Origin: Candidatus Multivoradales bacterium
Lineage (GTDB): Bacteria > Acidobacteriota > Thermoanaerobaculia > Multivoradales > JAHEKO01
Length of the DNA: 64,000 nt
Reading direction: 5' to 3'
NCBI GenBank assembly: GCA_965223155.1
Contig: CBDCVR010000013.1
Location: forward strand, 997,538 to 1,061,537
Shown one piece after another: positions 16-53,637 of the stretch. The first letter of the stretch is position 1, and each line of letters begins with the position of its first letter. A model generated the notes under the pieces. That model was not told where the DNA came from. It made no database searches and saw nothing but the letters and a program-made list of their open reading frames with translations. The position numbers and the translations under genes are program-made.

Positions 16-624
16 TCATGAGGATTCTCCTTGGCGATTGGCCTCGCGATTCGTCGCCGCCGGGCGGGCCGCGGTCGCGGATCCGGCGGGCTCGATCACG
101 ATCTTGCCCAGCATCAGATGGTGGTTGATGCCGCAGAACTCGTTGCAGATGACCTTGTAGTCACCGGGCTGGTTGGGCGTGATCTTGAGCCCGTAGTCGT
201 ATCCGGGGACGATCTGAAAATTGACGTTGGCCGGATAGAGACTGAAGCCGTGGTTGACGTCGAGCGATGAGATATGAAGCGTGTAGTCGGCGCCTTCTTC
301 CAGTACCAGGACCGGGGACCACTTCCACATCGTGCCCTGGAGATAGATGTCGCTTCCGGCCGGCGGCTTGACGACGGGAATTCCGCTTTCCTCGCCGACC
401 TGGTAGTCGTTGATGAAGCGCTGGACCCGTTCCGCGAACGCCTTGGGCTCGACCTTCGAGCGAATGCCGGACGGGTTCTGCCCGCCCTTGATGTGCCAGA
501 AGGGCATCGCCGCGAACAGAACCATGCACCAGATAAAGGCGACGACGATCCAGAACCTTTCTTGCTTGCCGGCAGGCTTCCACCAGACTCCCTTGGGCGG
601 GACGACCGCGGTATGGAGACTCAT
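16..624 (-). CDS. coxB: cytochrome c oxidase subunit II (CuA-binding)
   Basis: Translation contains the CuA motif ICNEFCGINHHLM and an N-terminal TM segment. The ATG (MSLHT...) was chosen inside the longer ORF. The stop overlaps an ATG at 17-19 on the same strand, which looks like the start of coxA/ctaD running off the window. Confidence 0.8.
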   Translation of the reverse strand: MSLHTAVVPPKGVWWKPAGKQERFWIVVAFIWCMVLFAAMPFWHIKGGQNPSGIRSKVEPKAFAERVQRFINDYQVGEESGIPVVKPPAGSDIYLQGTMWKWSPVLVLEEGADYTLHISSLDVNHGFSLYPANVNFQIVPGYDYGLKITPNQPGDYKVICNEFCGINHHLMLGKIVIEPAGSATAARPAATNREANRQGESS

Positions 625-27107: not shown

Positions 27108-28019
27108 ATGGCTTGGGAGTATCCTGTCGCTTCGATGCGCTACCTCAAGACCGTCTCGCTTCTGGCCGCCGCCAGCGCGTTCTACCTCTTGATCGCGGGC
27201 TCCCAGGTCAATTCCTGGCAGGCGGCGCTCTCGGTGCCGGACTGGCCACTGTCGTACGGACACCTCCTGGCCCCTTCCTGGCCTGGCAACCTGTTCTACG
27301 AACAGCACCACCGAGCCACGGCGGCTTCGACGGTCGTGCTCTTTGCGCTGGTGCTGGTCGGATTGGCCCGGCGGCGGGAGCTGGCCGCCGCCCGGCGGCT
27401 CGGCTGGTGGGCAGCAGCAGCGCTGGCCGCTCAGACCCTGATGGGAGGCTTGATCGTTCTGAAGCTCAATCCACCGTGGCTCGGTGCCAGCCACGTGGTC
27501 CTCGCCATCGTCACGGTCGTCTTGATCGCGGTAACGGCCCTGCTCGTCTGGAGAGATCCGGTTCGAGAGGATCTTCCGGAGCCGCGGGACACCGGTCTCG
27601 AGCGCATCGAGCGAAGGGCTGCGCTCGGACTCGGCCTGCTCGGACTCCAGATCGCTCTCGGGTCGCTCGCCCGCCACCCCCCCGCCGGCGAGCTGGCGTT
27701 CATCGCGACCTTGCTCGCTCATCTCTTCGTGGGACTCGTCCTGATCGTCTGGACCTCGCTTGTGGGCCTGTCGGCGGGCCGCAGCCGGCGCATGGGCAGA
27801 GCTCGGGCTTGGGGCTGGGTGCTCGTGCTCGTCGCCGCACTCCAGCTCGCGGTCGGCGCTTGGGTGTTCGTGGTCGCCCCCGAGCCGTTCGCCGAGAGCT
27901 GGCCGCCGCCGTCCGGATTCCCGGCAGCCCACGCCCTTCACATCGTGCTGGCGGCGGCGCTCGCCACCGCGCTGGTCGCCGTCCGGATCGAGAGCCGCCA
28001 GCGGACTAGGGCGTGTTAA
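27108..28019 (+). CDS. ctaA: heme A synthase (CtaA/COX15 family); last codons supplied by the IS element
   Basis: Multi-TM protein with a PDWP motif in the first loop and paired His residues in TM segments. The ATG (MAWEYP) was chosen inside a longer GC-artifact ORF. The stop TAA lies inside the IS left inverted repeat. Confidence 0.65.
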   Translation: MAWEYPVASMRYLKTVSLLAAASAFYLLIAGSQVNSWQAALSVPDWPLSYGHLLAPSWPGNLFYEQHHRATAASTVVLFALVLVGLARRRELAAARRLGWWAAAALAAQTLMGGLIVLKLNPPWLGASHVVLAIVTVVLIAVTALLVWRDPVREDLPEPRDTGLERIERRAALGLGLLGLQIALGSLARHPPAGELAFIATLLAHLFVGLVLIVWTSLVGLSAGRSRRMGRARAWGWVLVLVAALQLAVGAWVFVVAPEPFAESWPPPSGFPAAHALHIVLAAALATALVAVRIESRQRTRAC

Positions 28020-28460
28020 CACTGTCGCAGTGCATCAGCGATGAGGGCGAAATGGATGAAGGCGATGTACATGACGTCGAGCTTCTCGAATCTGGAAAAG
28101 ATGCGCCGGTAGCCTTTGAGCCGGCGAAAGAGCCGTTCGATCTCGTTGCGACGTTTGTAGAGGAGCCGGTCGTAGGCCCAGGGCCGAAGGCGAGTGCTCA
28201 AGGGTGGCACGACAGGGGTATAGCCGAGATTCAGAGCGAGTTGTCGGGTTTCGTTGCCTTCGTAGGCTCGGTCCATGACAAGCGCGATCGGTTGCTTCGG
28301 TCGGCCCAGGTCTTTCAGCAAGCATCGGCCGACGGGCGCATCGTGCGCTTGGCCGGGCGAGAGGCAGAAGGTGATGGCTGTTCGAGCATCTGCGGCAACC
28401 ATATGAATCTTGGTGGTCCATCCACCGCGGGACTTTCCAATGGCCTGGGGGCCGTTTTTT
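28016..28460 (-). CDS. IS5-family transposase OrfB (DDE part), reached by -1 frameshift from OrfA
   Basis: ...KIHMVAADARTAITF...DRAYEGNETRQLALNLGYTPVVPP...RRNEIERLFRRLK is the typical IS427-group catalytic region. The frame is -1 relative to OrfA on the transposase strand. The upstream limit is approximate. Confidence 0.7.
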
Positions 28461-28779
28461 TTAATGCTCCCGTACCGTCGGGGTGAACCCGCACGATCGT
28501 GCTGTCAAGTGACACGGCCTCGATCTTGACTCGCACGATCTGCTCCTCTTGGAGCCGCGCGAACACCCGATCCAACACGCCGTTCTTGGACCAACGGTTC
28601 ATGCGAGTGTAGATCGTGTGCCAATTCCCGAATCGTTTCGGGAGCCCGCGCCACTTGCAGCCGTGTTCGGCAACGTAGAGAATTGCGTTCAGCACTTGAA
28701 CATTCGGCACGCTGACGTTGCCTCGCTGCACTGGAAAGCAATCTGCAATGCGCTCGTACTGTTTCTCCGTGATTTCCAT
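28315..28779 (-). CDS. IS5-family transposase OrfA (N-terminal DUF4096-like DNA-binding part)
   Basis: MEITEKQYERIADCFP...GCKWRGLPKRFGNWHTIYTRMNRWSKNGV is the typical IS5/IS427 OrfA. It ends shortly after the A8 run at about 28455-28462. Confidence 0.75.
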   Translation of the reverse strand: MEITEKQYERIADCFPVQRGNVSVPNVQVLNAILYVAEHGCKWRGLPKRFGNWHTIYTRMNRWSKNGVLDRVFARLQEEQIVRVKIEAVSLDSTIVRVHPDGTGALKKTAPRPLESPAVDGPPRFIWLPQMLEQPSPSASRPAKRTMRPSADAC

Positions 28780-28822
28780 GCACGGAGCTTATACGATCCT
28801 AACCCTTAAGTGTTAACAGGCC

Positions 28823-30418
28823 CTAGCCGCCGAGAGCCCGCGCCATGAGGTTCCGCCTGGCGATCGACGAAGCGGTCAGATAGCCCGACATCAAGGCTCC
28901 TACCACCCCACAGGTGGTCATGTCCTGGCCGGTCAGGTAGAGACCGCGGATCGGGGTCTCGGGCCGGAGCGTCCGGTCCGCGAAGCGCTCCGGTGTGTGC
29001 TCCAGGCCGTAGATCTCACCCCGCGCGTAGCCGGCGAAGTGGCGCGTGGAAAGCGGCGTTGACACTTCCATGTAGTCGATCTTGTCCCGGACTCCGGGCA
29101 AGGCGCCGTCGAGCCGATCCAGCATCCGGGCGGCAAGGGCCGCCTTGAGCTCTTCGTAGTCTGTGCCCCGCTCGCGCCACGGGGTCCCGCTCCAGCGCTC
29201 GAAGCGCTCCCAGGGAGCCAGGGTAATGAGCTCTATGGTGGCTCGGCCCGGATACTTGGCTTCGAACTCGGGGTCCTTGGCCGACGGGAACGAGGCGTAG
29301 ACCAGCGGCAGCGGCGCCTCAGGATCCGCGACGAAGGCCGCGACCGAAGCGTCGTGGTCCGGCCCCGGATAGATCCAGAGGTTGTGCTTGGGCAGCCCCA
29401 GCTCGGCAGCGGTGTGGCGGAATCCCAGGTAGAGGCAGAGATGCCCAACGGAGGGCGGCCGTTGTTCCGCCCGCCGATCGAGGCCGAAGCCGGCCGCGGT
29501 CTCCGCATCCAGGAGAGACCGGTAGGTCGCGTGGACGCCGGCATCGCTGATGACGATCGGGGCATGAAGCTCGCGCCCGTCGGTCATGCGAACGCCCACG
29601 GCACGGCGACCCTGAACCAGGACCCGCTCGACCTCGGCCTGGTAGAAGACCTCGCCGCCCGCTTGCTGGATGACGGGTGCGATAGCGGCGGCGATCCGGG
29701 ACGACCCGCCCACCGGGTAGTAGCCCCCGTAGAGATAGTGCTTGGCCAGCATCGCCTGCATGGCGAACGAGCTCTGGGCCGGCGGCAGGCCGTAGTCGCC
29801 GAACTGGCCGGTCAGCACACCTTGGAGCTCGGCGCCGGCTCCCAGCTCGTCGAGCACCGTGCGAGTCGTACGCCCGGCCCAACGCAGGAACGGAGCCCGG
29901 AGGAAAGGCCCGGCGAGCCGCGCCACCAGCGGCGGCAGCGCCTTCTCGGCAAAGAACCGGTTCGAGCTCCGGGCGACCTGATCCATCAGCTCGAGATAGC
30001 GGTCGACGGCGCCAGTCTCCCGCGGAAAGTAGCCGTGCAGCCGGTCGCGGAAGGCGTCGCGGCCGGACACTAGATCGTACGTTCGCTCCCCGAGCAAGAT
30101 GCGGTCGTAGAGCTCGCCCATCGGCGCCCATTCGAGGCTGCCGTCGGTAACCCAGTTGAGTAACCGAAGCGTGGGCGACTTGGTGCTCCCCATGCCACCG
30201 ACGTAGTGGACGCCGACGTCCCACTCGTAGCCGCGACGCCGGTAGACGTGGGTAAAGCCTCCCGGCATGTAGTGTCGCTCCAGCACCGCGACCCGCTTGC
30301 CGAGAGCCCGGCCCAGCACCGCCGCCGAAGCCAGGCCGCCCACACCGGAGCCGATGACCAGGACGTCGAACTCCCGGTCGGGTGGCTTCTTGCGATAGCT
30401 CCTGCCGACTCGGATCAT
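28823..30418 (-). CDS. FAD-dependent oxidoreductase, phytoene desaturase (CrtI-like) superfamily
   Basis: N-terminal dinucleotide-binding motif DVLVIGSGVGGLASAAVL..LERH and a length and profile typical of CrtI/retinol-saturase-like amine-oxidase-fold enzymes. The stop TAG overlaps the IS flank. Confidence 0.75.
   Translation of the reverse strand: MIRVGRSYRKKPPDREFDVLVIGSGVGGLASAAVLGRALGKRVAVLERHYMPGGFTHVYRRRGYEWDVGVHYVGGMGSTKSPTLRLLNWVTDGSLEWAPMGELYDRILLGERTYDLVSGRDAFRDRLHGYFPRETGAVDRYLELMDQVARSSNRFFAEKALPPLVARLAGPFLRAPFLRWAGRTTRTVLDELGAGAELQGVLTGQFGDYGLPPAQSSFAMQAMLAKHYLYGGYYPVGGSSRIAAAIAPVIQQAGGEVFYQAEVERVLVQGRRAVGVRMTDGRELHAPIVISDAGVHATYRSLLDAETAAGFGLDRRAEQRPPSVGHLCLYLGFRHTAAELGLPKHNLWIYPGPDHDASVAAFVADPEAPLPLVYASFPSAKDPEFEAKYPGRATIELITLAPWERFERWSGTPWRERGTDYEELKAALAARMLDRLDGALPGVRDKIDYMEVSTPLSTRHFAGYARGEIYGLEHTPERFADRTLRPETPIRGLYLTGQDMTTCGVVGALMSGYLTASSIARRNLMARALGG

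Positions 30419-53560: not shown

Positions 53561-53637
<77 letters not shown>

Follow-up and report, generated by a model that had tools for sequence, protein, structure and literature searches.

An IS427-type IS5 element with an A8 slip site at the 3' ends of two convergent genes in a Candidatus Multivoradales contig

The DNA studied here is a window of 64,000 nucleotides from contig CBDCVR010000013.1, assigned to Candidatus Multivoradales bacterium, and the feature in question is an 815-bp insertion sequence (IS) present once in that window. The element is very probably an intact, IS427-type member of the IS5 family that entered a CTAG site at the ends of two convergent genes, encoding a CtaA-like protein and a generic oxidoreductase, and its transposase would be made by fusing two open reading frames (ORFs) that overlap, orfA and orfB, through a -1 shift on a run of eight A residues (A8). 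This reading is carried by observations of the element's anatomy, its family membership, the conservation of its slip site among relatives and its TA target within YTAR. An earlier note, written from the letters of the window, had described an intact, IS427-like IS5 element at the 3' ends of two convergent genes, with OrfA and OrfB overlapping in the -1 relationship on an A8 run at about 28455-28462. Its outline was confirmed: the inverted repeats, the CTAG flanks and matches to Pfam and NF033580 profiles agree with an intact IS5-family element, the IS427-like label is supported by architecture (size, inverted repeats, TA duplication, split ORFs) together with the IS5-family profile matches, the ends of both genes were mapped to the element, and the run occupies exactly 28455-28462.

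Anatomy, relatives and target site

The core terminal inverted repeats (IRs) read GGCGTGTTAACACT at 28010-28023 and GGCCTGTTAACACT on the reverse complement of 28809-28822, and pair over 14 bp apart from one mismatch; counting the terminal G/C, the repeat is 15 bp long and matches at 14 positions. A repeat finder returned an 18-nt inverted pair at 28006-28023 and 28809-28826, 94% complementary. A search of the window with the 14-nt core, allowing up to two mismatches, yielded two matches where 0.15 were expected, and both were the ends of the element. The left junction reads ...CAGCGGA-CTAG-GGCGTGTTAACACT... and the right junction ...AGTGTTAACAGGCC-CTAG-CCGCCGAG..., so that CTAG stands at both ends, at 28006-28009 and 28823-28826, as had been claimed. 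The span of 28008-28825 proposed at first does contain the element, but it is asymmetric, and the flanks of relatives place the ends at 28009 and 28823 (Table 1); similarly, the terminal repeats are real, while the 16 bp first assigned to them had included one base of the duplication. The GC content of the element is 57.7%, against 67.6% for the window.

Table 1 Features of the element and its neighbours (window coordinates)
Feature	Position	Strand	Basis
Insertion sequence, complete, 815 bp, IS5 family, IS427-type	28009..28823	- (transposase)	IR pair, flanks of relatives
TA target-site duplication, left copy	28007..28008	.	Within CTAG 28006-28009
TA target-site duplication, right copy	28824..28825	.	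Within CTAG 28823-28826
Terminal inverted repeat GGGCGTGTTAACACT, far from transposase start	28009..28023	+	Motif also at ends of relatives
Terminal inverted repeat GGGCCTGTTAACACT (minus strand), near transposase start	28809..28823	-	One mismatch against the other IR
orfA, 154 aa, DUF4096 / helix-turn-helix-type N-terminal transposase part, carries D92	28315..28779	-	Pfam PF13340, 79.5 bits
orfB-frame part of OrfAB, DDE catalytic domain, D170 and E213	28016..28456	-	Pfam DDE_Tnp_1 37.7 bits, DDE_Tnp_1_2 30.1 bits
A8 slip site (A_AAA_AAA plus A)	28455..28462	-	Register, fusion, conservation
COX15/CtaA-family gene, 303 aa	27108..28019	+	PF02628, 45.4 bits
Convergent FAD/NAD-binding amine-oxidase / CrtI-like oxidoreductase, 531 aa	28823..30418	-	NAD_binding_8 / Amino_oxidase domains

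Two sets of relatives were used for comparison. The first came from a metagenome scan with a 21-mer across the slip site and comprised 39 contigs, whose elements are 71-76% identical to the window copy overall; 29 are complete, measure 800-821 bp and have the same ends. This set was not used for slip-site conservation, because it had been chosen by that very sequence. The second set was chosen by protein similarity in species-representative genomes, and its best 80 loci include 74 complete elements, 69 of them distinct, with 70-81% DNA identity to the window copy, the same ends and a similar size; the relatives range from 800 to 851 bp. They come from Acidobacteriota (Vicinamibacterales), Chloroflexota (Dehalococcoidia), Binatia, Burkholderiales, Thermodesulfobacteriota, Nitrospirota and others. 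A search of an E. coli genome collection gave no match.

Several genomes of the second set carry many copies. One Vicinamibacterales metagenome-assembled genome (MAG; contigs CBDHGC010000003/4) accounts for 11 or more of the best 80 loci (L086, L087, L093, L095, L102-L105, L109, L115 and L119), and one Thermodesulfobacteriota MAG (OZ220712.1) supplies four (L076-L078 and L082); both are examples of strong copy-number expansion in a single genome. The closest DNA relatives, 90.5% identical, lie at different CTAG sites on three ENA metagenome contigs (L124-L126); they share the A8 run and have at least two distinct left flanks and three distinct right flanks. Judged by customary thresholds the element is probably a new IS species, given 90.5% identity to the nearest DNA found and about 80% to the nearest named proteins.

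In this single copy a duplication of TA cannot be separated from one of CTAG, and the call therefore rests on comparison with relatives. In a comparison of 106 elements that differ in their flanks, CTAG was the 5' tetramer in 88 and TTAG in 13, and on the 3' side CTAG occurred in 87 and CTAA in 14; TTAG on the right, CTAA on the left and identical non-CTAG tetramers on both sides were found in none. A 4-bp CTAG duplication, which would give the same tetramer on both sides, was rejected in view of the arrangement YTAG|IS|CTAR in these elements. The comparison points instead to duplication of the TA inside YTAR (here CTAG) and assigns the inner G and C to the element. Excision of the element with one TA gives the same empty site as the earlier note had proposed. 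The window holds 54 CTAG sites where about 95 are expected from its di- or trinucleotide composition, roughly two-fold fewer. About 50 further CTAG sites in the window are potential targets, all free of this IS.

Transposase frames and the slip site

Re-reading one A joins the two frames into OrfAB, join(28779..28456, 28456..28016), a product of 254 aa. The matches to PF13340, PF01609 and PF13586 all exceed the Pfam gathering scores, and OrfAB matches the NCBIfam model NF033580 'IS5 family transposase' with 246.2 bits (cut-off 110) over positions 4-255 of 258. Proteins of 252-254 aa named 'IS5 family transposase', a very large set from Variovorax, Burkholderia, Hydrogenophaga, Pseudomonas, Gemmatimonadota and others, share 76-81% identity with OrfAB. 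In an alignment of 15 sequences (OrfAB and 14 homologues), every invariant residue is kept in OrfAB, D92, D170 and E213 among them, and from the usual family motifs LDST, MDRAY and NEIERLF these three would form the catalytic triad. D92 lies 5' of the slip site and D170 and E213 lie 3' of it, so that the full DDE is present only in the fusion. The predicted trans-frame product includes the peptides GALKKNGPQAIGK and ...GALKKNGPQ..., and its junction GALKK-NGPQ is the same as in annotated NCBI slippage-joined proteins. A RefSeq relative on a Pseudomonas plasmid has an annotated coding sequence of 764 nt, a length of 3n-1, and is therefore a slippage-joined gene. The OrfA size of 154 aa is kept in most of the closest OrfA homologues among the matches listed. 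Assignment to the IS5 family, IS427 type, is thus supported, the group being placed by architecture and literature description.

Apart from the A8/T8 run, no homopolymer in the window reaches seven bases. Read in frame with orfA, the site is GCA TTA AAA AAA ACG, so that A_AAA_AAA fits the X_XXY_YYZ register, and orfB stands in the -1 frame relative to orfA. Among 70 distinct protein-selected elements, this one included, the junction run is A8 in 53, A9 in three, A7 in four and shorter or interrupted in 10; A8 followed by CGG occurs in 53 of the 70. The slip site and the next 70 nt are the best-conserved part of the element, with an identity of 0.84-0.96 against a mean of 0.72. These features suggest that frameshifting does occur at A8 and that OrfAB is made, with OrfA alone as the predicted default product.

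Within this region, orfB third codon positions are free to vary for about 11 codons after the slip site, and from W403 on they are about 90% conserved (window 28383-28420, IS positions 403-440, minus strand). Overlapping this stretch are the OrfA tail in the 0 frame (...DGPPRFIWLPQML...), itself conserved, and the internal ATG of orfB. This pattern suggests a dual-coding or other nucleotide-level constraint rather than an RNA element.

On the plus strand, antisense to the slip site, 28439-28464 forms a terminator-like hairpin (AATGGCC-TGGG-GGCCGTT) followed by T8, which could keep read-through from ctaA out of the IS. Shuffled sequences predict one such site for a stretch like the one scanned, and its pairing is not conserved in the relatives.

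Several results weigh against the proposed reading. No stimulatory fold was detected around the slip site, the 121-nt stretch spanning it having a z-score of +0.46 against shuffled sequences, and the consensus fold of 56 A8-bearing relatives reached -5.5 kcal/mol with no compensatory pairs in alifold, its pairs being either invariant or altered on one side only. A downstream stem-loop or pseudoknot is common at -1 frameshift sites, although not obligatory. An exact 29-mer across the slip site had no match in the genome collection, and no empty site was found among the available CtaA homologues, the nearest of which is 61% identical and has other downstream genes. The mismatch between the IRs also belongs on this side of the account, though relatives vary likewise: at IR position 4, where it falls, they carry G or C, at times unlike between the two ends of one element, and it is therefore not regarded as a defect.

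How the fusion forms is a separate matter. It is possible, and the less favoured of two routes, that OrfAB arises when RNA polymerase slips on the A8 template and puts in one extra A (transcriptional slippage), with no -1 shift of the ribosome. The conserved feature is a run of eight A residues, more than a heptamer, and no conserved stimulatory structure was found 3' of the slip site, both of which suit the polymerase. Baranov et al. (2005) described IS elements with conserved A9 or A8 runs, proposed transcriptional slippage for them and argued that eight As can slip productively (PMC1088944). A run of A9 gives a continuous ORF, consistent with 762-bp protein matches, and the single ORF of the A9 relatives is the product expected from a transcript with one added A. 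On the other hand, A_AAA_AAA stands exactly in the X_XXY_YYZ register for tandem tRNA-Lys slippage, translational frameshifting is assumed in the literature for this IS group (PMC3281130), and for one A_AAA_AAA IS cluster -1 ribosomal frameshifting is cited as proven (PMC4066793). Ribosomal -1 slippage is somewhat favoured, on a sequence that by itself does not separate the two routes.

The loci with A9 are L040, L041, L043 and L056, and those with A7 are L071, L079, L109 and L119. They could be natural fused or dead variants, comparable to ISPha1 of Paracoccus, or homopolymer errors in long-read MAG assemblies.

Insertion at the gene ends and age of the copy

The proposed course of events is as follows. 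The element would have transposed into a CTAG that held the TAG stop of the oxidoreductase gene and that lay within the convergent CtaA-like gene, 26 nt from its 3' end, and the central TA would have been duplicated upon insertion. Because the element ends in G...C, CTAG would be remade on both sides, and the stop and sequence of the oxidoreductase would therefore be retained. The CtaA-like frame would read three codons into the IS and stop at the TAA of a GTTAAC motif in the IR. The transposase would be fused through slippage of the ribosome on A_AAA_AAA or, alternatively, through one A added by RNA polymerase.

The present CtaA-like protein, a divergent member of its family, is identical to a database protein (P0121) of 303 aa ending in ...QRTRAC. 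Its last three codons and TAA stop lie within the IS end, which the frame enters as AGG GCG TGT TAA. Removal of the element in silico gives ACT AGC CGC CGA GAG CCC GCG CCA TGA, that is ...QRTSRREPAP* with a stop at 28846-28848; the reconstructed empty junction is GCGGACTAGCCGCC, in longer form ...CAGCGGACTAGCCGCCGAGAG.... Seven residues (SRREPAP) would thus have been exchanged for three (RAC), and the reconstructed gene would overlap the oxidoreductase gene by 26 nt. This agrees with the earlier note, which had given both the present and the former C-terminus, described the change as a swap of the last few residues and predicted an overlap with the oxidoreductase gene. The ancestral state of the site is nevertheless a reconstruction, and because the empty site was not found the former C-terminus is arithmetic only, a point to be set with those against the proposed reading. 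An overlap of 26 nt is plausible, since ctaA and a convergent ABC1-kinase gene share 19 nt in one relative (L123, 4921-4939). The genes downstream of ctaA in relatives encode an ABC1 kinase (L120, L123) or a PALP enzyme (L122), and synteny is not conserved. In 20 relatives the part of CtaA beyond the last helix is between 1 and 20 residues long and shows no conserved position (seven aa here now and 11 aa as reconstructed, both inside that range), and for this reason the C-terminal change is probably neutral.

The TAG stop of the oxidoreductase is the complement of CTA at 28823-28825, within the right-hand CTAG, to which the IS contributes its terminal base, the C at 28823. The earlier description of this stop as formed at the junction holds in that it is re-formed there; it is not new, having pre-existed in the target CTAG. 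The protein is unchanged, as the CTAG of the empty site supplied the same stop and the terminal base of the IS remakes TAG. It is called an oxidoreductase in the generic sense only, because its scores for CrtI and carotenoid isomerase fall below the family cut-offs.

The re-forming of stops leads to a broader proposal, which joins several parts and is judged unlikely as a whole: that the element family is 'stop-codon safe' and persists at gene ends, that the OrfA tail is a regulatory peptide and that transcriptional slippage on A8 sets the fusion. The G...C termini and the TA duplication would remake CTAG on both sides, genes with CTAG-embedded TAG stops on either strand would be left untouched, and copies would be kept preferentially at gene ends; the post-slip OrfA tail (...DGPPRFIWLPQML...) would be functional, and the level of fusion would be set by transcriptional slippage on A8. 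Across 106 elements, TAGs adjacent to the IS close an open frame of at least 80 codons in 29% of cases, against 18% for other CTAG sites (Fisher p = 0.003) but 26% for random positions in these GC-rich loci, which is not convincing as evidence of a link to stop codons. Among the closest relatives a called gene stops, like the oxidoreductase here, exactly on the TAG of the CTAG that flanks the IS: L124 (gene 3-272), L125 (gene 2-100) and L127 (gene 1-330).

Returning to the copy in the window, a recent and mobile element is plausible, and it may well be active. All parts are intact, its GC content is low and two contigs, of 1.24 and 1.31 Mb (the longer being 1,309,891 bp), are on record for the exact 154-aa OrfA. 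For the CtaA-like protein and for the oxidoreductase there is a single contig each, of 1,242,760 bp, a difference that would point to one or more further copies whose OrfA is identical.

That the element is instead an inactive, immobile relic, its orfA/orfB split being a frameshift mutation or a homopolymer sequencing error, is very unlikely. Such a relic would accord with a single copy in the window, with IRs that are unlike at one position and with the continuous ORF of some A9 relatives. The split A8 architecture is, however, that of the majority (53 of 70 distinct elements across phyla), the closest homologues listed mostly keep the 154-aa OrfA, none of the invariant transposase residues is altered and a second large contig is on record with the same OrfA; IR variation, for its part, is common to multi-copy relatives.

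It is also rather improbable that the insertion is old, with the present CtaA end effectively native and ...SRREPAP* either never of importance or lost to later change in the flanks. An old insertion would fit the failure to find an empty site among the available relatives, and the unconserved CtaA tails of 1-20 residues would leave selection blind to either end. Set against it are a GC content about 10 points under that of the host region, the intact ORFs, IRs and TA duplication, and an open frame, restored by excision, that comes to a clean stop 22 nt downstream and overlaps its neighbour to an extent known from a relative, although none of these by itself gives a date.

Two further features of the window lie outside the insertion site: a 988-aa ORF with a signal-peptide-like start at 23607-26573 on the plus strand, upstream of the ctaA region, and a tRNA-Pro (CGG) gene at 53561-53637 on the plus strand, the only RNA-family match in the window.

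Comparison with known systems

For annotation, the two ORFs are to be given as one slippage-joined IS5-family transposase and not as pseudogenes, the 3' end of the CtaA-like gene as chimeric with the IS, and the oxidoreductase as intact. The element could act as a strain marker and, if other copies exist, as a recombination site. Its wide phylogenetic spread at 70-80% identity with the A8 slip site makes a clean case of a conserved recoding signal, which is already an accepted trait of this IS group, and there is little significance beyond annotation. Structure, target, recoding site and location are ordinary for an IS427-type element.

Insertion in CTAG with duplication of the central TA is also known from IS630 / Tc1-mariner type elements, which have an unrelated transposase family and resemble the present element in target only.

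In Paracoccus the IS427 group has been described as comprising elements 832-865 bp long whose IRs measure 13-21 bp and whose direct repeats are nearly always of 2 bp, with two overlapping ORFs, a conserved frameshift motif and a full DDE only in the fusion; functional ISs were trapped there, and one natural single-ORF mutant, ISPha1, was found (PMC3281130). Like these elements (IS1248, ISPpa2, ISPaes1 and ISPam4), the one described here is small, with short IRs and a 2-bp duplication, and a conserved frameshift motif links its overlapping ORFs into a fusion, which alone has the complete DDE triad. In both cases elements are often multi-copy and single-ORF variants occur occasionally, ISPha1 there and the A9 relatives here. 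The present element differs in its slightly shorter length of 815 bp and in its host, apparently a Thermoanaerobaculia-like acidobacterium rather than a proteobacterium, and the likeness described here is one of architecture.

A second comparison is with the genes annotated by PGAP as 'IS5 family transposase' (NF033580) on plasmids and chromosomes of Variovorax, Burkholderia, Hydrogenophaga and Pseudomonas, which share the 254-aa joined product and the ALKK/NGPQ junction. Their proteins are 76-80% and their DNA is 72-76% identical to the window copy, with the same ends, and by the usual criteria they are different IS species. Finally, the slippage IS elements of PMC1088944 likewise have a conserved A run at the orfA/orfB junction, of 8 or 9 residues among homologues; in the element described here the heptamer also stands in the register for ribosomal slippage.

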